58,671 bases of DNA from a virus (lineage: Duplodnaviria; Caudoviricetes). Under the pieces are notes generated by a model. That model made no database searches, had not been told where the DNA came from, and saw only the letters and a program-made list of their open reading frames with translations. Position 1 is the first letter of the stretch; each line of letters begins with the position of its first letter. The position numbers and the translations under genes were made by a program. The stretch covers positions 1 to 58,671 of the IMG/VR virus record IMGVR_UViG_3300032323_001828; one strand, given 5' to 3'. Positions 39,771 to 51,567 of the stretch are shown here, one piece after another.

Positions 39771-41177
39771 TTAATTTGTCTTTATTTTGCCCAACAACTG
39801 TTTGAGCTTGGCACTTTGCACATCGGCTATGACTTTGCCAGACTCAATGACTTCTTCTTGTGCAGAATCTGCCGCCAAGGCCAGTCGACTTTGTGTTTTG
39901 ATACTGTTCAAGATATCAGGTTTACGGAACGCATTAACTGGTCCAGCTTCTTCGCCTGGATCAGTAATACGCATGGTTTCAATATTGTAGTCCAAGTCAA
40001 TCTTTTGCCCTACACCTGTACTGCTACGCGACTTCATACACTGTATTTGATACTTGCCACGCTCACGCATAGCACGACTTGTAAAGATACCAAACACGTT
40101 GTCTGCTGTGTTAATCTTACTGATACCACCCGAAATATGACTATGATCAAATTCAATTTCTTCCACTGCACTTCGATTTAACTGACTTGCTGTCACAAAC
40201 AACACATTAAGTTCTTTGGCCAAATTACGCAGTTCTTCACTAACATACTTGTCTTTGACAAACAAATCATTGGGACTGACCTTAGCACTGACTGGCATTA
40301 GTAAGTCCAAGTAGTCACACATGATAAAATCTACTCGAATGCCTGTTTGTACTTGCACTTCTTTGATGTAACTGCGAATGTCATTGATATTTGATTGTGC
40401 AGGCAATGCCTTGATACGATACTGCCCAGCTTTCTTGCTTACCAGTTTGACCTTGAGTTCGGTTTGATCAATGTCTTTACGAATTTCTTTTGTGCTCATA
40501 CCGGCCAACATGGCATCAGTACGCAACGCACACAGTTCTTCACTGAGTTCTAAACTGATATACACACCACTAAGTCCGGCCTGCAACCAACTCAAGGCTA
40601 TGTTCATCATGACCAAGCTCTTGCCCGATCCAGATCCACCAGCAAATATGTTTAGTTCGCCGCGACTGAATCCACCATACAAGATCTTGTCCATCTGTGG
40701 CCACCCGGTGCTCACTTGCCCACCGCTATTAAAATATTTGTCGATACGCAATCTAGGATCTGCCCAGTAATCTGTGCCCATGTCCTTGGTCAGACTGATC
40801 TGTACTGCATCCTTGATCAGTTTTTCTACTGGATCATACTCGCCTTTTTCCAGCAAGTCTGCACTCTTTAAGATTGCACGTTCTAGTTCTTGACGTCGAG
40901 TAAAGCCTTCAAACTCGGTCATGAACCATTCAAAGTGTCCGTCATTCAAGTCAGGAATATGTTTTAGTTCTACGCCAGTGGCTGCTCGAATTTGATCTGT
41001 GCCAGGCAATGTTTTGTATTCATTACTATGTGTGGCAATAAACTCGGCTACTGGGCGTAAACTTCTATCAAAGTTTTCTGGATTATAAATGTTCTGCACA
41101 CGCACATACGACTCTGCGTCTTGCAACATCATTTCTAAGAATAGTCGTTGGACCTCAAGCCCGTAGTCTTTTAACAA
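39771..41177 (-). CDS. replicative DnaB-like helicase (gp41-like)
   Basis: GGSGSGKS, SLELSE, DYLDL, TASQLNR, KSR; TTG start. Confidence 0.95.
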   Translation of the reverse strand: MLKDYGLEVQRLFLEMMLQDAESYVRVQNIYNPENFDRSLRPVAEFIATHSNEYKTLPGTDQIRAATGVELKHIPDLNDGHFEWFMTEFEGFTRRQELERAILKSADLLEKGEYDPVEKLIKDAVQISLTKDMGTDYWADPRLRIDKYFNSGGQVSTGWPQMDKILYGGFSRGELNIFAGGSGSGKSLVMMNIALSWLQAGLSGVYISLELSEELCALRTDAMLAGMSTKEIRKDIDQTELKVKLVSKKAGQYRIKALPAQSNINDIRSYIKEVQVQTGIRVDFIMCDYLDLLMPVSAKVSPNDLFVKDKYVSEELRNLAKELNVLFVTASQLNRSAVEEIEFDHSHISGGISKINTADNVFGIFTSRAMRERGKYQIQCMKSRSSTGVGQKIDLDYNIETMRITDPGEEAGPVNAFRKPDILNSIKTQSRLALAADSAQEEVIESGKVIADVQSAKLKQLLGKIKTN

Positions 41178-41185
41178 GTTGTTTC
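41170..41185. repeat. direct repeat flanking the radical SAM gene (copy A)
   Basis: tttaacaagttgtttc vs tttaacaagttgcttc at 42303-42318 (15/16). Confidence 0.65.
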
Positions 41186-42310
41186 CTTTTGTATTTCTGG
41201 TGACAGCGATTTACGCCAATCAATTTTTCTTAAAATGCTAAGACGATCTAAATAATCAACCCAGGCATTATCAGGCTGACTGTTTTGTTTTATATAGTTG
41301 ATTACAGTGTTTACTCCTGGGTATTTACTTAACGAGTATAACATATCTAGTGCCAGCAATGCTTGGTTTTTGGTAAGATGTTTTAAATCCAAAACCCGGC
41401 CGCCGTAGGAACTAGGCTCAATGCATCGTACAAATAGCTGGCTAGGATCGCCTTGACTACCAGTTTGACAATGCTCTTCCCACCAATGGAAAAACTCTGG
41501 CATGTTAAAAATATTGTGTATTCCAATTATAGCATTAACTTCTATTAGGATACTGATATTATTAAGCGATCTAAAATATTGTATGTTGTCTTGCACTTTG
41601 CTCCAAACCGCCGGGAATCTTGTAAATTCAAATGTGCTCTCAATTCCATCTAAACTAAAAAATAAACGTACAAACCGACACCGTTCCCAGAGCTCTAGTG
41701 TTTCCGCATCAGGTATAATAGTTCCGTTTGTGTTATACGATATCATAAGATTTGGTAACACTCCCAGTGTGTCTAAATGTTGTAATATTTTTTTATTGTC
41801 TCGATTTAGCAACGGCTCACCGCCGGTAAAGTGTAACTTTTTAATATGATTGAGATCCAAATGTTGCCATACTGACTCAGGGTTTTTCTTCAAGGTTATC
41901 TGCGGAGTGGATGGATCAAACAACTGATACTCGCCGCTCCAAGAACTACTATATGTAGAACTACAACTAATACATTTTAGATTGCACGCCAATGATTGCT
42001 CAAGGTGTAGGCTATGTATTACTTTTGATGTTGTGTCTTGCGATATTAATGAATTCCATTCCAACAACGATCGTTCTCGTTCATTGGCTATGTGCCCAGG
42101 TATGCTACAATAATGCGAACACGATTTAGGAACTGCTGTTTTACTCTCTTTGCGAATATTTTCCAAGGTTTGATGGTCAAAGGTAATTTTTTCTACCGTT
42201 TGTTTTTGTTGCCAACAACACATGGAAATAGTGTTTCTCCCCGAGGCTGTTGCTCCTATAAACAAACCTTGATTATAATAAGGGCAATGGGTGTCTGAAT
42301 TGTTTAACAA
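41171..42310 (-). CDS. radical SAM protein inserted between primase and helicase
   Basis: CNLKCISC, TGGEP, NTNGT, SLDG. Confidence 0.9.
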   Translation of the reverse strand: MLNNSDTHCPYYNQGLFIGATASGRNTISMCCWQQKQTVEKITFDHQTLENIRKESKTAVPKSCSHYCSIPGHIANERERSLLEWNSLISQDTTSKVIHSLHLEQSLACNLKCISCSSTYSSSWSGEYQLFDPSTPQITLKKNPESVWQHLDLNHIKKLHFTGGEPLLNRDNKKILQHLDTLGVLPNLMISYNTNGTIIPDAETLELWERCRFVRLFFSLDGIESTFEFTRFPAVWSKVQDNIQYFRSLNNISILIEVNAIIGIHNIFNMPEFFHWWEEHCQTGSQGDPSQLFVRCIEPSSYGGRVLDLKHLTKNQALLALDMLYSLSKYPGVNTVINYIKQNSQPDNAWVDYLDRLSILRKIDWRKSLSPEIQKETTC

Positions 42311-43250
42311 GTTGCTTCTTTCTCAGTTCTATCTTAATTTTGCTGGTTTCTTTTGCTTGCATTATAGTTATCAATGTGCCTAATCTGCCCAAACGAATCA
42401 CAGCATCGTTTACATCTTTGACCCCCGCGGGCCATTCGGGCATACTGACCGCCCAACCCAGTTCCACTGCACGATCTACTAACTTCATTCCGGCTTCATC
42501 CTGATCCGGCACCACAACCACCTCACGTCCAAGACTGCGTATCAGTCTTACTTGAGCATCATTAATGTCAGCATGCATAACCGCTAAACCGTTGATACTG
42601 AGTGCATCAAATACACCTTCTACCATAATTGCATACTGCCAGTTAGCGCCTTGAAGATCTGTTCCAAACACATAGCCATGCTGTATGTCCTGTATGTACT
42701 TGGGCATACGATCATCTAGAAATCTAGTAGTATGCCCAACCACTTGATTGTCATGTGTAAATGGAATTACTATGCCGGGACGTGGCATGGTTTTATACAT
42801 GAATGGATAGTCTAGTAGAATGCCTCTACCACGCAAATACTTTTCAGCTGTTTCATTTAACGGTTGGGTGTCTGCTGGTAGGTCTCGATCTTCAAATTCA
42901 ATGTTTTGTAACTTGTTGACAATCTCTTGTCGCTCGCCCAGCAGGCCTTCAATTGATTTGTGCTTTAGGCTTTCAAGATTGATGCGTTCAATTTCTTCCT
43001 GCGGCACATTCATCCACTCTAATAGTCGACGAGCTTTGAATGTTAAGTTGCGTCCCAGAACAAAACTGGCAGTATAGCCGCAGTTGAAACAGTGATAACT
43101 CCACGACCCGTCTGTGCCGGGTTTGATACCGCCACGCTGTCGACGATCCTGTGTGTCGCCGCGATGGATGCAACAGGGTGCGTTGAAGCTGATCCAGCCA
43201 CTGGCTGTTTGTTTACGCTTGCCGGGTAAAAAGGAAATCACATCAATCAT
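42273..43250 (-). CDS. DNA primase (gp61-like)
   Basis: Zn finger (PCC...HCFNC), TOPRIM EGVFDA, PDQD, KDVND. Confidence 0.92.
   Translation of the reverse strand: MIDVISFLPGKRKQTASGWISFNAPCCIHRGDTQDRRQRGGIKPGTDGSWSYHCFNCGYTASFVLGRNLTFKARRLLEWMNVPQEEIERINLESLKHKSIEGLLGERQEIVNKLQNIEFEDRDLPADTQPLNETAEKYLRGRGILLDYPFMYKTMPRPGIVIPFTHDNQVVGHTTRFLDDRMPKYIQDIQHGYVFGTDLQGANWQYAIMVEGVFDALSINGLAVMHADINDAQVRLIRSLGREVVVVPDQDEAGMKLVDRAVELGWAVSMPEWPAGVKDVNDAVIRLGRLGTLITIMQAKETSKIKIELRKKQLVKQFRHPLPLL
42303..42318. repeat. direct repeat flanking the radical SAM gene (copy B)
   Basis: 15/16 identical to 41170-41185; both copies contain a TTG start codon. Confidence 0.65.
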
Positions 43251-43297: not shown

Positions 43298-44449
43298 TTA
43301 TCTGTACAGTAGGTCGACCACATAACCTGTGCTGATAATAACAGCAGCTCCAGTTTGATTGGGATTGACTGGGAATACGCCTGGGCCTTGGCCAGCATTG
43401 GGCAGATACCAGTAACCCGATCCGCCATTGGTCACAGTAATGCCCGTAACCACACCTTCGGTAATCTGTGCTGTGGCTGTAGCACCGGCGCCTGTGCCAA
43501 TGATGTTGACTTTGGGTGGTGCCAAATAGCCCGACCCACCCTCGGTCACAGTGATACTGGTGACCACACCATTTTCTGTTGTGGCATACGCTATGGCCGG
43601 AATACCGGGCTGATCAGGTACAGCAAAAATACTGTTGTTGAAACACAATCTCATTATTGGATACCAGCCCACAAGATTCATGTAGATTGTACCAGTTTTG
43701 TTGAGATATGTAGTGGATTCGGTTATGTTGTAAAAGATGCTTTGATAGTTTTCCGCTGCCTGTGCCTTGATTGTTCCGGTATATCCGTCCAAGGTCATTT
43801 GTACTGTGGTCACTGCGTTGACCGGTTCAATAAAACTACTGAAAAATTCTGTATTTAAAAAACTGTTGTAGTAATTGGCACCATTAGGATTGCCGCCTGC
43901 CCAGTAAGGACTGGAGGGATATTGTCCCCAGGTGGCCCCATCATAACTGACCTCAGCAGAAAGTTTTGTGGTGGGAATTGTAAGTGGTGCGCTGGGCACA
44001 TACTGCGGCAATACGCTGTCCACAATGTTTACGGGAGCACGAGCACCCGCCTGCGCATTGGTAAACACCGCTTCGGTCAATCCGCCGGGCTGTGTTCGTT
44101 GTATGCTGTAGGTGGCCGGTTGTGCCAAGACTTCCAACAATTCTGTGCTGGTTAGCGTAACTTTGGCTCGGCCAGTTGCAGCATTCAGAGCCTCCAAGGG
44201 TTTTTCAACCAGTATTTGATCGCCTTGTGTGTTGATTGCGCGAAATAAAAAAGTACTGCCTGTGATGTTGACAGGTTTTTCTTCTTGATTTATAAATTCA
44301 AACAAGAGCACGTTGTCCACGCCTTTGTTTATGGTCAGTTGTTTTGCGTACACAGGATCGTACCTATAAGTAAAAGTTTCCCCCGCGCCAGTGTCTATGA
44401 GTAACACTCGTGTGAGCTGTTGATAGATATAAACCTGGGTAGAGTACAT
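43298..44449 (-). CDS. virion structural protein (baseplate/tail associated)
   Basis: KGVDN.L.F N-terminal domain; two ITVT.GGSGY repeats. Confidence 0.7.
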   Translation of the reverse strand: MYSTQVYIYQQLTRVLLIDTGAGETFTYRYDPVYAKQLTINKGVDNVLLFEFINQEEKPVNITGSTFLFRAINTQGDQILVEKPLEALNAATGRAKVTLTSTELLEVLAQPATYSIQRTQPGGLTEAVFTNAQAGARAPVNIVDSVLPQYVPSAPLTIPTTKLSAEVSYDGATWGQYPSSPYWAGGNPNGANYYNSFLNTEFFSSFIEPVNAVTTVQMTLDGYTGTIKAQAAENYQSIFYNITESTTYLNKTGTIYMNLVGWYPIMRLCFNNSIFAVPDQPGIPAIAYATTENGVVTSITVTEGGSGYLAPPKVNIIGTGAGATATAQITEGVVTGITVTNGGSGYWYLPNAGQGPGVFPVNPNQTGAAVIISTGYVVDLLYR

Positions 44450-44509: not shown

Positions 44510-44887
44510 ATGAACAATGATTTTTTTGAAAAACTGGCTGAAAAATACCCATTTATAACATTGTGTGTCTATGCCACAACAGAATACGTGGGCATTATAC
44601 AAAATCAAGATGAGGCAATAACTACCATCTACGATTTTGGTGCCATACAAGACTTGGAAATCAAACGTCAGTTTTTGGAACTGGCCAATATTTGGTGGTG
44701 GGAAAGCAATAGAACTGTGCCCATCAATATATTCCTCAAAGGCGACTGGGATCAATTCAAACCCTACTTACGAACTTTTACCAACAAAGACCTGGAAGTC
44801 TTGCATGGCCCAGTGTGCAGTCTCAGCGAAATGAGTCGCAAAAAAAGCAAGAGAAAATCAATTACTCTGGTCAGACGCCTTGACTGA
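44510..44887 (+). CDS. conserved phage hypothetical protein
   Basis: KYPFITL...EYVGIIQN...WWWESNRTVPINIFL; TAAATA upstream. Confidence 0.75.
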   Translation: MNNDFFEKLAEKYPFITLCVYATTEYVGIIQNQDEAITTIYDFGAIQDLEIKRQFLELANIWWWESNRTVPINIFLKGDWDQFKPYLRTFTNKDLEVLHGPVCSLSEMSRKKSKRKSITLVRRLD

Positions 44888-45440
44888 GCAAGTTCATGTG
44901 CAAGGCCACTAGAGCGGCATAGCCGATGGCATGTGCATGTTTGAACACAAATCCTCTACTATCGTCGCCGTCCCACACTGATTTAAATACAACGTCCCAG
45001 GATTGATTTTGCAGGTGTGCTTTACCCGGGCGGATTATACTAATAAATGCAGCCATACGAGTAATAGAATCTGGACGCATTGATTCTAGTAGTTGCGTAT
45101 AATTGCCCACGTGCACCAACTGACTGACCCATGCAGTATCGGTCCATAAACGACTCCACGGCGGTTCTTGTGCCAGCAGTTGTTCATAGTGTTCATAACT
45201 TTTTATCAGCTGATACACACTCATGTTCAGCAAGTCAATTTTAAAATAGCCCAGTTGTTCAGCTGTTTCATAATCTATGGCCGCACATCCGTGTACTGGA
45301 TCCTGTGGTATATCAGTCACGTACACACCGCTGTTGTGTCGCCGTATTTGAGTTTGGTGTGTTTGACGTGCTGGTGTTGCCCGAATTAGTTGTAGTAACT
45401 GTTCTCTGTCGGCCAAATCGATGTCAATGTCTGCGCTCAT
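44871..45440 (-). CDS. miniature DNA polymerase III alpha (DnaE) palm-domain protein
   Basis: DIDID, HNSGVY, GYFKIDLL, IIRPG and FKHAHAIGYA are collinear with E. coli DnaE DFDVD, HAGGVV, GLVKFDFL, LFRPG and FNKSHSAAYA. Confidence 0.8.
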   Translation of the reverse strand: MSADIDIDLADREQLLQLIRATPARQTHQTQIRRHNSGVYVTDIPQDPVHGCAAIDYETAEQLGYFKIDLLNMSVYQLIKSYEHYEQLLAQEPPWSRLWTDTAWVSQLVHVGNYTQLLESMRPDSITRMAAFISIIRPGKAHLQNQSWDVVFKSVWDGDDSRGFVFKHAHAIGYAALVALHMNLLSQGV

Positions 45441-45444
45441 GATC

Positions 45445-46434
45445 TTATTTTACACGAAAATCCAACACATGTCTACTGTTGGTGAACCATGTGGTAGTAG
45501 CTGCAGGAAATTCACAGTTCCATAAGTTTTCTAACTGTGCCAAAATATAACTTTCCTGCATGAGATCCAACTTGGGCAATTCAAAATCTTTACCTTGACA
45601 TATTTGATCTATCAACTGATCGCAATGTATCTTTGAGTTTCGATAAGGTTGCTTGCTTAGAAATATTTCATGCAGTTGCCGGATGGCGGTTTCTTGTTTG
45701 AATTCATATCCGGACCATTGTGCTATGTGTTGTAGTTGTTGTACAAACTGGTCTGTATTGTAAAAACTTGCAAATGGAAATATCTTTACATCATTGCTGG
45801 AGTCGTAAATCATTTTTTCCTGCTGTGTTATAAATCCTGATTGATAGGGTTTTTTAAAACCAATTTTGAAAAATTCTCTAAGTACATTCCGTGGACAATC
45901 TACATGTTCGGAGTCTAATCGTAACAGGCGCAAATTGTGTTGACCCAGACATTCTGATTTTATCCATTCCGGTAACTGATCAAAATCATCAAGGTTGTTA
46001 CAATCAGGCCAGCTTTCATCCTTGACTGCTGCATAACTATCAGCAAACTGTGTTTTAAAAAAACTTGCAATCAAGTTGTCCAGTACCCACTTATAGTCTG
46101 GATTATTAAGTTTGTTATAGGTGTTGATTTCCAACAGGTCATTGTCAAGACCGTGATCACCGGCTCGTAACAAACTAATAGACTGCAACGGCAATAGATC
46201 AGATGTGGTTATTTGTATGCTGATTATTTTGCTGTCGAAGATCTCTGTTCGTACGCCACGAAAGTCAGAGTAGTGCCAGCAGTCAAATTGTTTCTCTTCA
46301 TGATACCGTTTAGCATGTGAAGCTCCTTGCTGGTTGAATGGCGTATCATTGCAGGCTACGCCGGCTAGGAATTTATTACAGACAAAATCCAAATAGTTGC
46401 CGTGAGTACCACCATGAAAATCGATATAGATCAT
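45445..46434 (-). CDS. hypothetical protein (possibly sulfotransferase/P-loop-like)
   Basis: IDFHGGTHGNYL N-terminal Gly loop; AT-rich. Confidence 0.55.
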   Translation of the reverse strand: MIYIDFHGGTHGNYLDFVCNKFLAGVACNDTPFNQQGASHAKRYHEEKQFDCWHYSDFRGVRTEIFDSKIISIQITTSDLLPLQSISLLRAGDHGLDNDLLEINTYNKLNNPDYKWVLDNLIASFFKTQFADSYAAVKDESWPDCNNLDDFDQLPEWIKSECLGQHNLRLLRLDSEHVDCPRNVLREFFKIGFKKPYQSGFITQQEKMIYDSSNDVKIFPFASFYNTDQFVQQLQHIAQWSGYEFKQETAIRQLHEIFLSKQPYRNSKIHCDQLIDQICQGKDFELPKLDLMQESYILAQLENLWNCEFPAATTTWFTNSRHVLDFRVK

Positions 46435-47109
46435 TTACCAACCGGCCCTTTGCAACATGTCGCGCACATATTCTTGGTCAGCTACATAATCACGAAACTT
46501 TTTCATCCATACTTCCGAATCAATGTAGGGCCATAATATGGCAATTTGTGTAGCATCTAATTCGCCTAAGAACTTTTGTCCTGAATCACAGTTGTACACT
46601 ATCCAAGGACTGATCCTACCAGCGGTCACAGCATAGACCATGGCATTGACATTGCCATAGCGTAGGCAATCCTCTGCAGGATGTCCTGTTTTTTCTGCCC
46701 AGTCGATGCCAAATTCCATGGCACGAGCCAGGGCATCATTGATGTTTTCAACTTTTAAATAGTCGATAAGATATTCTGTATACACAGTGTCTTTGCACCA
46801 GTGATCAATTTTTTTGTTTTGTTTTAACACCCACTTGGTAAATTGCTCTGGGTTAATAGCCTTGACATCTACACAGTATCGACCAAACTTTACAAATGCA
46901 CGATAGTAAGGACTGTCACAAAAGTCATCATAGGTTTTTAATTTGGCACTGCCTTGAGTAAGTTCATAAAACTTGATGTATGAATAGAACCCCAGTCTGA
47001 CACCAGGCTCATCTTGTTGCTGTCGACGACGACGCGGTTCGCACGAATGCACTGCAAGACTAGACTCTTTGACAAAGTCTTTTTTGCAATACTGACATGT
47101 GTATTTCAT
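46435..47109 (-). CDS. Zn-finger protein in the replication cluster
   Basis: YTCQYCKKDFVKESSLAVHSC C2H2/C2HC-like finger. Confidence 0.7.
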   Translation of the reverse strand: MKYTCQYCKKDFVKESSLAVHSCEPRRRRQQQDEPGVRLGFYSYIKFYELTQGSAKLKTYDDFCDSPYYRAFVKFGRYCVDVKAINPEQFTKWVLKQNKKIDHWCKDTVYTEYLIDYLKVENINDALARAMEFGIDWAEKTGHPAEDCLRYGNVNAMVYAVTAGRISPWIVYNCDSGQKFLGELDATQIAILWPYIDSEVWMKKFRDYVADQEYVRDMLQRAGW

Positions 47110-48095: not shown

Positions 48096-49556
48096 TTATT
48101 TCCAAGCTAGTTTTTCTTGTGTAAATGGATATGAAGCCTCCTTATAAAACTGCTTGCGTTTGGTCAAGTGACGTTTTGCAAATCTACATGTTGATGTCAC
48201 GTCCCAGATCTGTACATGATCCTTGTCTTCGGCCTTGCGGATACCTCGCCCTATGCTTTGTATCACTCGGACAAAACTCTTGCCAGGTTCCACAAGAACC
48301 AGATTGAAAATCCTAGGTATATTGATACCCACCGCAGCCACGCCATACGTGGCCACAATGATCTTGCCTGTTGCATCAGCCACTTCATCATATTCATCCT
48401 GTCTCGCCTTGGCCTTGGTTGCACCCGATACCATTACAGCGTTATCACCCAAGCGTTCTATTAGGCCCTGTCCGGCTGCAATACGATCTACCAACACAAG
48501 AGTGTTGCCTGTGAGATTGACTTGCCGGATCAAATTGGCTATGGTGTCTAATCTGCCAGGCTCTTCCAACAGGTATTTTAGCTCGCTTTGATAATTGGTA
48601 AACTCTGCATGATCTTCCAATTGTACAATGTTCACATGACATTGTGCCAGCACACCTTGGCTTTGCAGTTCGCTGGCGCTGAGCTTGCCAATCACCGGGC
48701 CAAGACTACACTTCAGGGCTTGGAATTCGAATGGTTCCTTGGGTATGGTTCCTGTGAGTCCCCAGCGCAAGGGAATACGACTCATGACTCCGGTCAGCAG
48801 GGTCTTTAATGCGTCGGCCTTGGCCATGTGTACTTCATCCACAATAACACACACTACATCTTCAAGAAACTCACCGATAGTAACATCACCTACAGAATTT
48901 TTTGTATTCTTCAGTAGCACATTTAAACTTTGCCAGGTACAGATGGTGTGCTGGCGTCCCCACTCTTTGCGGTCTCCAAAGTACACACCCACATCCTGTT
49001 GCATGTTGATGTAGTCTTTTTCTGTTTGTGTGACCAGACTCTTGTTGGGCACAATCACAATAGTACGGCCTAAGGGCGCCACAGCGTTGCTAAGTGCGGC
49101 TGTAATAACAGTCTTACCAGCGCCAGTGGCAATCTCTTGTATGCACTGTGGATTGGATAAAAAGTTGTTGATAATTTCCACTTGATAGTCACGCATGACC
49201 ATGGGTTCGCCGGCCTGCGGATGACCCTTGGGCCAAGTGATATGGCCAAATGAATCCTCAGTGACCTGCTCAAATTCAAATGTGGTAGAATAGTCTCGCT
49301 GATCATTTAAGTCAATATCGTAGTTGAACTTCTCTAGAATAGGAATAATTTCTGGCAACAAGTTTACATAGGTACTGCCGCCCAGTTGAAAATAACTGAC
49401 TTTACCGTCCCAGCGTCCGAGGCGCACTGCTGGCAGGTATCTGGCCCCGGGCACATCATACTTGAAGGCATTTACTAAGGCGCGCCGAGCATCAAGTTCT
49501 AAGCCTTCTATTTTGATATTGACTTCATCGCGGATAATGATAGTGGCTGTTTTCAT
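48096..49556 (-). CDS. uvsW: SF2 helicase, UvsW-like
   Basis: RDYQ, ATGAGKT, DEVH, GLTGT, QSIGRGIR. Confidence 0.9.
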   Translation of the reverse strand: MKTATIIIRDEVNIKIEGLELDARRALVNAFKYDVPGARYLPAVRLGRWDGKVSYFQLGGSTYVNLLPEIIPILEKFNYDIDLNDQRDYSTTFEFEQVTEDSFGHITWPKGHPQAGEPMVMRDYQVEIINNFLSNPQCIQEIATGAGKTVITAALSNAVAPLGRTIVIVPNKSLVTQTEKDYINMQQDVGVYFGDRKEWGRQHTICTWQSLNVLLKNTKNSVGDVTIGEFLEDVVCVIVDEVHMAKADALKTLLTGVMSRIPLRWGLTGTIPKEPFEFQALKCSLGPVIGKLSASELQSQGVLAQCHVNIVQLEDHAEFTNYQSELKYLLEEPGRLDTIANLIRQVNLTGNTLVLVDRIAAGQGLIERLGDNAVMVSGATKAKARQDEYDEVADATGKIIVATYGVAAVGINIPRIFNLVLVEPGKSFVRVIQSIGRGIRKAEDKDHVQIWDVTSTCRFAKRHLTKRKQFYKEASYPFTQEKLAWK

Positions 49557-50419
49557 TGTAGTTTTACTTGTGTGATATGCTGTTGTTGGGCAATGCGTTG
49601 TATCAATTCTTCTCTTGGCAGAGTTTCTATCAATTCAGCCACTGGAAAACGCAAGGGCAATAGTCTAGGATCTTGAAAAGTTGTAAATCCTTGATCAAAG
49701 AAAAACTCTCTGTGCTGGTTATAATATTCTTGCATGCGGCACAGTTTTTCCGACAGGTAATCTGCAGTTTCCTCGTGCATGCGAATCACAAAGTCTGCAG
49801 AGTAGTGGAGGAATGGTTTAAATGCATCGTCGCTTATGTAGTTATCACGATCCTGTGTCAGGTCCTCAAGAGTCTTGCCTATTTCAGCATAGTTCAAACA
49901 TACTGCGCCAAAGCTAGGATCAAGAGTGCCGTATTTCTGCATAAGATCCACAGGTAATCTTTCGGTCTTGGGCATGCCAAACCAGGTGCAAACAAATCTT
50001 GCCCGATTACCCCGAGCCGCACTTTCGCATCTATGTACAGCAACATTCAATAGAGCCAATTGTTGTCTAACCCAGTCAGGAATCTTGCCATAGGTCGGAT
50101 GTTTTGTCTGTTGGTCCAATAGGCCGTGCCACTGTTCAAAAATGTTGTGCAGGTAATTCAACGTGTCCTGATCGTGTACTGCTAATAAAGTGCGATCAAT
50201 CAAGGGTTTCCAGGTGTTGATTTCTGCAACACATTCTTGTATCTTTTCTAAAGCAATCTGTTGATCCTGTTCAGGGCTGTTAAACCCATAAAATCTGTTT
50301 GGATCATCCAGGGGCCACGAGTTTCGCAGAGCCATGCGTTTGACCCAAAGATCAGCCACAGGTGTATCTAGCACACGAAATTCAAGTTGTAAATCAGAAA
50401 GATCAATAGTCAAGATCAT
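49553..50419 (-). CDS. hypothetical protein
   Basis: DQDTLNYLHNIFE...LNVAVHRCE...LNYAEIGK. Confidence 0.7.
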   Translation of the reverse strand: MILTIDLSDLQLEFRVLDTPVADLWVKRMALRNSWPLDDPNRFYGFNSPEQDQQIALEKIQECVAEINTWKPLIDRTLLAVHDQDTLNYLHNIFEQWHGLLDQQTKHPTYGKIPDWVRQQLALLNVAVHRCESAARGNRARFVCTWFGMPKTERLPVDLMQKYGTLDPSFGAVCLNYAEIGKTLEDLTQDRDNYISDDAFKPFLHYSADFVIRMHEETADYLSEKLCRMQEYYNQHREFFFDQGFTTFQDPRLLPLRFPVAELIETLPREELIQRIAQQQHITQVKLQ

Positions 50420-50541: not shown

Positions 50542-51567
50542 TTAAGAATTTTTCATACAAGTTGTGGCAGCAAGTGCTCTCCAATTTGTATCTGATACAC
50601 GAGTCAGATCTGCAATCTTTAGTGCCATGCGCAGGCTCATCTCACGCAGGCGAGTTTGATTCTGTTCCATAAACTCGATCACCATGTCACCTTGTTCTTG
50701 CGAGAAGTCGTAGTCTGCAAACAGTTCGCCCTTGCGATAGATTTGCTTGATACGCAAGAAACGATCACGCATGGTGTTAAGGGTCAAGTCCAGGAAGTGA
50801 CAACGACTCTGTAAGGCTTCCAAGTGGTCTTGTAACTTCTTGCTCTTAAGGTTGCTGAACTGCAAGTTGGTAATAAAGATACAAGCACCTTTGAAGTCAA
50901 ACATGTCTGGAACGCCTTCACGACGCAACATGGCACTGTCACTGTTCCAATAGATCCTACGCTTCTTGCCCGAATCCAAAGCCGCTTTCAAAATGTTCAA
51001 GCTCAAGTCATCTTGGAACACCGAGTCACAGTCGTCGAACACCAGCACATTGTTCTTGTCTGAATGTTTGTATAGAGTGCAGTACAGGCCAATCGGAGTC
51101 ATGGCACCTTTGATCACTTCATACTTGATCTTACGGCCTGACAATTTGTCAAACAAGCCCGAATGCTCCAACTGTTTTTCCACACCATAACTCTTGCCCA
51201 CACCAGGAGGGCCAACCACAATCATGGCACGCACATCGCCGGCAATGGTGGCCTTGGTCATTTGATCAAGAATGTCAAATCTTTGACCAATACGTTCCAT
51301 GATTTCTTCGTCAGTTTCTACCGGTGTCTTTACAACCGGCGACATCATTTCGCCAACCACTGCCGATTCGCCTACAAATTCTACGTCTTCGATTGAGTTC
51401 ACATTGATACGAACTACTTCGGGCAAGTCTGGGCCAAAATAGCCATCTGCATTCACAGTCACATAGCCTCCTCGGGCACCTGTTTGAAAACCCTTAACCA
51501 AGTTAAAGATCATGTTGTTTACGGGTTGATTACGGTATGTTCCGTTTATAATTTTTACTACGCTCAA
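50542..51567 (-). CDS. AAA+ ATPase
   Basis: GPPGVGKS, FDDCD, ALQSR; TTG start with AGGAG. Confidence 0.85.
   Translation of the reverse strand: MSVVKIINGTYRNQPVNNMIFNLVKGFQTGARGGYVTVNADGYFGPDLPEVVRINVNSIEDVEFVGESAVVGEMMSPVVKTPVETDEEIMERIGQRFDILDQMTKATIAGDVRAMIVVGPPGVGKSYGVEKQLEHSGLFDKLSGRKIKYEVIKGAMTPIGLYCTLYKHSDKNNVLVFDDCDSVFQDDLSLNILKAALDSGKKRRIYWNSDSAMLRREGVPDMFDFKGACIFITNLQFSNLKSKKLQDHLEALQSRCHFLDLTLNTMRDRFLRIKQIYRKGELFADYDFSQEQGDMVIEFMEQNQTRLREMSLRMALKIADLTRVSDTNWRALAATTCMKNS

Follow-up and report, generated by a model that had tools for sequence, protein, structure and literature searches.

A predicted C-terminal half of a two-piece minimal DNA polymerase III alpha subunit in an environmental jumbo-phage genome fragment

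The closest described system is the split minimal alpha subunit of DNA polymerase III (Pol III) that Iyer, Anantharaman, Krishnan, Burroughs and Aravind reported in 2021 from group 2.2 jumbo phages, including Atu_ph07 (Viruses 13:63, PMC7824862). As the text of that paper presents it, a standalone C-terminal unit that binds Mg2+ and template is paired with a distantly encoded N-terminal, NTP-binding unit, while a family B polymerase is encoded alongside and other Pol III domains are absent. The same text suggests that the minimal alpha subunit and the family B enzyme work together, either to synthesize one of the two strands or during repair, and takes the former as a model of the ancestral Pol III module. 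Here, we analysed a gene on the complementary strand (44871..45440) of a 58,671-nucleotide stretch of phage DNA that represents the whole of IMG/VR virus record IMGVR_UViG_3300032323_001828 (hereafter the window; G+C 43.6%, CheckV completeness 17%). Homology, predicted fold, residue conservation, purifying selection, co-occurrence of a partner gene in relatives and a predicted interface make it very likely that its 189-residue product is the C-terminal half (C-unit) of a two-piece minimal Pol III alpha subunit of the kind found in group 2.2 (Rak2/PA5oct/121Q/Atu_ph07-like jumbo phages), and that it forms a heterodimer with a separately encoded N-terminal half (N-unit). That the heterodimer is an active templated DNA polymerase appears moderately likely, judging from sequence and structural models.

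Compared with the families of Iyer et al., nothing essential differs at this locus, an identity that we draw from the text of the paper and from the phages in common rather than from accessions. The phage group is the same, with C-unit homologues occurring in Atu_ph07, PA5oct, 121Q/PBECO4 and Rak2-like phages, and so, judging from relatives, is the division into a standalone C-unit and a distant N-unit. In relatives of this phage, a family B polymerase is encoded alongside and no other Pol III domains were found for the pair. The arrangement is thus already known from their computational description and is not novel. The C-unit of the window is an environmental member of the family, approximately 42% identical to that of the nearest isolate, and some GenBank records already give isolate homologues a matching name, 'DnaE-like DNA polymerase III alpha' in Phosso and 'DNA polymerase III alpha' in PAC2.

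With the bacterial enzymes DnaE and PolC (E. coli alpha, 2HNH; Taq, 3E0D; Geobacillus PolC, 3F2C), the C-unit shares the palm and fingers core, the three aspartates, the lysine equivalent to K553, the R-P-G motif and the steric-gate histidine. By contrast, approximately 1160 residues of DnaE/PolC face approximately 190 in the C-unit or 360 in the pair, the fold of the minimal pair is cut after the G-S loop and ahead of the DxD strand, and the PHP domain, thumb, (HhH)2, clamp-binding motif, OB and tau-binding domain are missing from it. Another point of comparison comes from a close relative, G002 (a complete 337-kb record), in which an open reading frame (ORF) for a 557-residue single-chain DnaE-like protein (L089, 517..2190, complementary strand) exists beside the split N- and C-units. 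This protein resembles the pair in being a phage C-family core without PHP domain, but it is unsplit, passes Pfam (PF07733, 133 bits; PF17657, 54 bits), possesses full palm and fingers and has no counterpart in the window. G002 therefore carries two C-family cores in addition to a family B polymerase.

The C-unit as part of a probable C-family polymerase core

The C-unit matched phrog_11778, annotated 'DNA polymerase', over residues 3-187 (E 8e-55), and a 33-residue stretch of it matched phrog_405, a profile of 1190 positions (E 2e-5). Homologues are numerous: in a 90%-clustered collection, 6349 of 6561 scored candidates were homologous at E<=1e-3, and there were 352 matches at E<=1e-3 (216 at E<=1e-10) in a 50% representative library. 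A Pfam scan with the single sequence returned only DNA_pol3_finger (PF17657) at 12.7 bits, below its 22-bit cut-off, with no match to PF07733 and no PHP domain, and a single-sequence phmmer search of the PDB returned only a chance match to a mannanase (E 0.36), showing that a family profile was required. The profile of an alignment of 83 diverse full-length representatives (A1) matched nine Pol III alpha sequences in the PDB, which come from E. coli, T. aquaticus and M. tuberculosis, with E values of 5e-6 to 1e-4. Its matching pieces ran collinearly with E. coli alpha, profile positions 55-140 aligning with residues 539-641 and positions 151-180 with residues 739-769. The match to Pol III alpha is far beyond chance, and it is the family-level evidence that is decisive.

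The predicted structure leads to the same family. An AlphaFold2 model of the C-unit built on A1 had a mean predicted local distance difference test (pLDDT) of 96.7 and a predicted template modelling score of 0.89, and the top 19 PDB matches of this model in Foldseek were all C-family polymerases. Upon re-alignment by VIA-align, the top 16 entries were again all C-family polymerases, with Z scores from 9.9 to 6.0, while the next entry, an unrelated fold, scored 3.6. Geobacillus PolC (3F2C) gave a Z score of 9.9 with 186 of the 189 residues aligned at a root-mean-square deviation of 3.3 A, Taq (3E0D) gave 9.2, and E. coli DnaE (2HNH) gave 8.3 over 184 residues, covering chain residues 399-779 with large deletions. 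An earlier reading of the window made from the letters alone (the sequence-only reading) had proposed a miniature and probably split DnaE-type polymerase, a proposal borne out by the profile match to E. coli alpha (E 5e-6), by the C-family fold and by the distant N-unit of relatives described below. The five DnaE motifs that it had called collinear are all present in the 189-residue ORF and follow the order of Pol III alpha (Table 1), among them the HNSGVY strand, which presumably corresponds to the H-x-G-G strand of DnaE.

The residues expected to carry catalysis are conserved throughout the family. D401, D403 and D555 of E. coli alpha are absolutely conserved catalytic residues of the C-family, as stated by Timinskas et al. 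2014 (PMC3919608), and the three aspartates that define the family are present in the C-unit as D4, D6 and D69. Retention of this triad, which had been noticed in the single sequence, extends to the family in A1, where D4, D6, K67, D69 and P138 were invariant in 83/83 homologues, H35, R137 and H170 were each kept in 82, and D8 and G38 were each kept in 81. Toward the C-terminus, the helix F-K-H-A-H-A aligns with F756-N-K-S-H760 of E. coli, which makes H170 the equivalent of H760. According to Vaisman et al. 2021 (PMC8485763), H760 is the presumptive steric gate against ribonucleotides and an S759A variant is viable. Given that the steric-gate histidine is retained, the sequence argues for dNTP rather than NTP as the substrate of the C-unit.

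A distantly encoded N-terminal partner in relatives and its predicted assembly

The sequence-only reading had further suggested a possible separate, GRGS-bearing subunit and recommended looking for a small ORF of this kind in the genome. Within the 58.7-kb window this search was negative: a six-frame search with PF07733 gave no match, a GRGS-like pattern run over 303 ORFs found only a spurious GRAS in a 54-residue ORF, and tblastn with two isolate N-units reached a best E value of 0.84. By contrast, PF07733 matched exactly one other place in each of four isolate genomes (Phosso, PAC2, Atu_ph07 and PBECO4) and likewise gave a single distant match in each of five further isolates (Vibrio 2.275.O, KP13-7, XaC1, PA5oct and G17). 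In all nine, the match covered profile positions ~16-98 and lay in an ORF of ~170-185 residues located 30-224 kb away from the C-unit gene. An N-unit was also found, approximately 100 kb from the C-unit gene, in 4/5 long IMG/VR contigs that encode a C-unit with 78-83% identity to that of the window, and the only long contig without it is a 32% fragment. With the partner gene positioned ~100 kb away in close relatives, it would fall outside the window, which is a 17%-complete fragment. A subunit of the suggested kind exists as an ORF of ~170 residues at a distant locus of the relatives (9/9 isolates and 4/5 long contigs).

The N-unit family is as large as that of the C-unit (7995 of 8000 scored candidates), and source records often call its members 'DNA polymerase III alpha subunit', with the PF07733 score of the N-unit being 23.4 bits against a threshold of 23.9 bits. 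Toward their end, its ORFs carry GxGRGSS and, after some further residues, a terminal EFL[RKNE] before the stop codon. In E. coli alpha, the chain runs on from the position equivalent to this end, via a short linker, into the D401/D403 motif with which the C-unit starts. No extra sequence is seen at the split junction, since the N-unit ends in EFL[RKNE] and the C-unit begins with M-x-x-DIDID. At the N-unit loci of PBECO4, PAC2, G001 and G002 (L006, L007, L091 and L093), a conserved ORF of ~113-160 residues comes after the N-unit gene and is in turn followed by an ORF of 108-133 residues that looks GroES-like by eye.

Evidence that the two halves belong to one fold came from a fused homologue and from complex prediction. 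The fused protein, P0170, was found in the search of the representative library and originates from an A+T-rich source, on a single ENA contig of 2415 bp. Its 375 residues contain an N-unit match (residues 77-180, E 9e-21) and a C-unit match (residues 190-372, E 4e-40) joined by a linker of ~9 residues. P0170 exceeds the PF07733 threshold with 59.6 bits, it aligns with E. coli alpha 319-417 across the junction, and its motif equivalent to DIDID aligns with the E. coli motif holding D401/D403. A search for relatives of P0170 in IMG/VR gave 18 pattern matches, of which none was confirmed, and P0170 is a singleton. It may be an unsplit ancestor, the product of a re-fusion or an artefact. Because P0170 is a singleton on a 2415-bp contig without IMG/VR relatives, this line of evidence is thin.

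For complex prediction, the C-unit of the window was combined with a stand-in N-unit from the relative G004, using alignments that we built ourselves. The predicted heterodimer had an interaction prediction score from aligned errors (ipSAE) of 0.91 in each of three runs, while the best of three controls scored 0.00. In calibration, the mark used was reached by 58 of 80 solved complexes and by 2 of 110 mismatched pairs. The three models contained 163-171 contacts with an agreement of at least 98% between runs and a partner pLDDT of 89-90, and the predicted contacts of lowest error joined C-unit residues 7-9 to N-unit residues 137-139, which is the pairing expected between the strand preceding the G-S loop and the DxD strand.

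Several observations weigh against the two-piece polymerase reading. Since the window contains no gene for the partner, the heterodimer is proposed for this particular phage from relatives with a C-unit 78-83% identical. The C-unit itself falls short of the Pfam gathering thresholds for DNA_pol3_alpha and DNA_pol3_finger. No longer, fused C-unit homologue was seen among 1505 candidates, and the fusion in P0170 could be an assembly or gene-calling artefact. Because the pair rebuilds a fold that has been solved many times as one chain, the ipSAE of 0.91 could be due in part to the model having memorized DnaE. Modelled alone, the N-unit was poor (pLDDT 67.5), a value that fits a half-fold but for which a shallow alignment may be another cause. 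Having neither a thumb nor the duplex-binding (HhH)2, the pair has no evident basis for gripping a primer-template, and the literature search for biochemical or genetic work turned up nothing beyond the comparative study of 2021 and notes on genomes.

Reduced architecture, proposed reaction and competing explanations

Given that the C-unit begins at the DxD strand, two parts of the Pol-beta-like nucleotidyltransferase fold are missing from it, the strand that comes before and the GxGRGS loop, and neither the ORF nor the rest of the window contains a GRGS motif. C-family polymerases as defined in PMC3919608 have the whole palm, G-S (GRGS) loop included, within a single chain, and in this respect the C-unit alone departs from the family. 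The spacing between D6 and D69 is 63 residues, compared with 152 between D403 and D555 of E. coli, and the C-unit model shows a simple hairpin (strands 22-28 and 31-40) in place of the thumb. Within the fingers, the ~100 residues that separate the R-P-G motif from the steric-gate helix in DnaE/PolC are reduced to ~25. The end of the C-unit corresponds to residue ~779 of the E. coli protein, with no Pfam match to later domains, and thus (HhH)2, the clamp-binding motif and the OB domain are absent. The list of missing parts drawn up in the sequence-only reading (PHP, thumb, most of the fingers, clamp-binding and OB regions) agrees with these results and with the absence of the PHP domain (PF02811) from all five complete relatives searched, against its presence in 14/14 control genomes.

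For the catalytic activity, substrate and biological role of the pair, we infer the following from the models and conserved residues. The C-unit would supply the palm strands with the three metal-binding carboxylates (D4, D6 and D69) and the invariant K67, together with cut-down fingers made of the R-P-G motif (R137) and the helix bearing the steric-gate H170. The N-unit would contribute the first strand and the G-S loop (GxGRGS) that binds the triphosphate, along with the helical half of the palm. Assembly is predicted to occur by strand pairing of N-unit residues 134-147 with C-unit residues 3-11, generating one palm with minimal fingers, and the heterodimer would then perform two-metal, template-directed addition of dNTPs. 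Since thumb, (HhH)2, clamp motif, OB and PHP/exonuclease are all lacking, such an enzyme is expected to be distributive and non-proofreading. In line with what Iyer et al. suggested in 2021, its role would probably be that of an accessory polymerase that works alongside the family B replicase, filling gaps or taking part in repair or in synthesis linked to recombination.

It is quite unlikely, in our estimate, that N- and C-unit form a heterodimer for something other than templated polymerization, such as template-independent tailing, priming, nucleotide or DNA modification, synthesis of a signalling nucleotide or non-catalytic scaffolding. Such a role would suit the loss of every part with which DnaE holds DNA (thumb, (HhH)2, clamp-binding motif and OB) and a Pol-beta-like nucleotidyltransferase fold that is compatible with many chemistries, and the literature searched yielded no activity data for the heterodimer. 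However, the pair keeps DnaE-specific fingers elements beyond a generic transferase core (R137 in 82/83 and P138 in 83/83 homologues), the steric-gate histidine helix is kept in 82/83 and points to selection of deoxyribose opposite a template (PMC8485763), and the C-unit gene sits within a conserved replication and recombination module. The new roles that the sequence-only reading had entertained (priming, tailing and DNA modification) gained no support here, the kept steric-gate histidine arguing for the use of dNTPs.

Far less probable is that the 189-residue protein is a self-sufficient mini-enzyme that works without a GRGS partner, even though it is modelled on its own at a pLDDT of 96.7 and no partner gene occurs in the window. 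The C-unit is missing the very elements, first strand and G-S loop, that define the nucleotidyltransferase fold. Moreover, the N-unit co-occurs with it in 9/9 isolates and in 4/5 long contigs (the exception being the 32% fragment), the end of the N-unit coincides with the start of the C-unit, and the window covers only 17% of the genome.

To examine selection on the C-unit, 69 coding sequences were compared, consisting of that of the window and those from 68 of 80 IMG/VR loci, with 12 loci dropped because the pattern for the start motif missed the full ORF. Over the 92 pairs with 0.05<dS<1.5, the ratio of nonsynonymous to synonymous rates (dN/dS) had a median of 0.08 and a maximum of 0.19, while dS was saturated in 60 of 68 comparisons between the window and a homologue. 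Such strong purifying selection excludes decay and, with the aspartates kept in 83/83 homologues, upholds the earlier argument that an intact active site speaks against it. The remaining DnaE domains were also searched for as parts of an intron- or intein-split gene. In the relatives, the finger profile matched only the C-unit itself (below threshold) and the one extra gene in G002, no coding trace of thumb, (HhH)2 or OB appeared elsewhere within the detection of the finger and alpha profiles, and intein/Hint families were absent from the Pfam matches of the C-unit (E<=10) and N-unit (E<=0.1). Together with the absence of the PHP domain from the five complete relatives searched, this rules out a usual dnaE split by an intron or intein, and likewise a fragment in decay. 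A precedent for division exists in cyanobacteria, where split dnaE genes are joined through trans-splicing inteins into full-length DnaE, so that a C-family polymerase likewise arises from two distant genes; here, by contrast, intein sequences are missing and the products are separate and small. That the gene is a remnant of a bacterial dnaE that was captured and is decaying, or an exon or extein of a split full-length one, is therefore hardly credible despite the cyanobacterial example, in view of the low dN/dS, thousands of homologues of equal length, the absence of inteins and other Pfam domains from both units and of PHP from all five complete relatives searched, and the restriction of PF07733 matches to the short N-unit in 9/9 isolates, with no thumb, (HhH)2 or OB detected.

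Gene neighbourhood and implications

Positions of the C-unit gene, its motifs and its neighbours in the window are given in Table 1. The sequence-only reading had placed the gene among primase, helicase, UvsW and clamp-loader-like genes, and PHROG scans confirmed these neighbours. In Phosso, PAC2 and PBECO4, the core of the module is arranged as in the window (UvsW-like helicase, small ORFs, C-unit, convergent ORF, primase, helicase), and Atu_ph07 has the same layout, with only hypothetical proteins annotated at the helicase and primase positions. The convergent phrog_11637 ORF stands tail-to-tail with the C-unit gene in all nine isolate relatives inspected. A family B replicase had been expected for this type of phage, and a family B polymerase (PF00136) was indeed present in 3/3 complete relatives searched, while being absent from the 17%-complete fragment represented by the window.

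Table 1. Coordinates of the C-unit gene, its motifs and the surrounding genes in the window
Feature	Position	Strand	Remarks
C-terminal (Mg2+- and template-binding) unit (C-unit) of split minimal DNA Pol III alpha (predicted)	44871..45440	-	189 aa; ATG start; TGA stop included
DIDID, residues 4-8	45417..45431	-	D4, D6, D8 = E. coli D401, D403, D405 (alignments)
HNSGVY, residues 35-40	45321..45338	-	palm strand directly after the site of the DnaE thumb insertion
GYFKIDLL, residues 64-71	45228..45251	-	K67, D69 = E. coli K553, D555
IRPGK, residues 136-140	45021..45035	-	fingers motif = E. coli R-P-G 639-641
FVFKHAHAIGYA, residues 164-175	44916..44951	-	fingers helix; H170 = E. coli H760, A169 = S759
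DnaB-like replicative helicase	39771..41177	-	phrog_19, E 5e-69
Radical-SAM protein	41171..42310	-	PF04055, E 2e-11; between primase and DnaB-like helicase
DNA primase	42273..43250	-	phrog_47, E 1e-38
Protein with structural-protein-like repeat	43298..44449	-	PHROG scan
Small convergent ORF	44510..44887	+	phrog_11637, E 1e-33; 17-nt overlap with C-unit 3' end
329-aa ORF	45445..46434	-	no PHROG or Pfam match; directly upstream of C-unit
phrog_11058 protein, Cys/His-rich N-terminus	46435..47109	-	E 1e-51; usual upstream neighbour of C-unit
phrog_11758 and phrog_11279 genes	between 46435..47109 and 48096..49556	-	PHROG scan
UvsW-like DNA helicase	48096..49556	-	phrog_16, E 3e-70; PAC2 gene at same module position annotated UvsW
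288-aa ORF	49553..50419	-	no PHROG or Pfam match; directly upstream of UvsW-like helicase
Clamp-loader-like AAA protein	50542..51567	-	PHROG scan

Some details of the neighbourhood vary among the phages. The radical-SAM gene is not found between primase and DnaB-like helicase in PAC2, Phosso and PBECO4, where these two genes are adjacent. In the window, the 329-aa ORF sits between the C-unit and the phrog_11058 gene; in PAC2, a C2H2-type protein abuts the C-unit directly, the PAC2 gene at the phrog_11058 position being annotated 'C2H2-type domain-containing protein' (matched by position only). PBECO4 has a gene annotated 'DNA polymerase exonuclease subunit' at the position of the 288-aa ORF, again as compared by position only. 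A scan for promoters and terminators around the C-unit gene was uninformative: promoter-like sites numbered 10 where 11.7 were expected, terminator-like sites 9 where 3.5 were expected, and no site was tellingly placed.

The two halves reside in different modules, with the C-unit among replication and recombination genes and the N-unit of relatives approximately 100 kb away near a putative GroES-like gene. That the splitting itself is functional, such that the pair assembles only in a particular window of infection, or that the pair carries out a reaction other than ordinary templated synthesis, is a doubtful proposition. If true, it would concern the smallest C-family catalytic core, one without thumb, PHP domain or clamp contact, which, in keeping with the proposal of Iyer et al., could be a living model for the ancestral module of Pol III. 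The C-unit family counts more than 6000 homologues at 90% clustering, is strongly conserved and forms part of the replication module in one of the major jumbo-phage groups. Should the two-piece polymerase reading hold, so that two proteins of ~180 residues make up an active polymerase, the minimal C-family catalytic core would be defined, with a bearing on the origin of the bacterial replicase, and the retention of a second polymerase by phages already equipped with a family B replicase would be accounted for.

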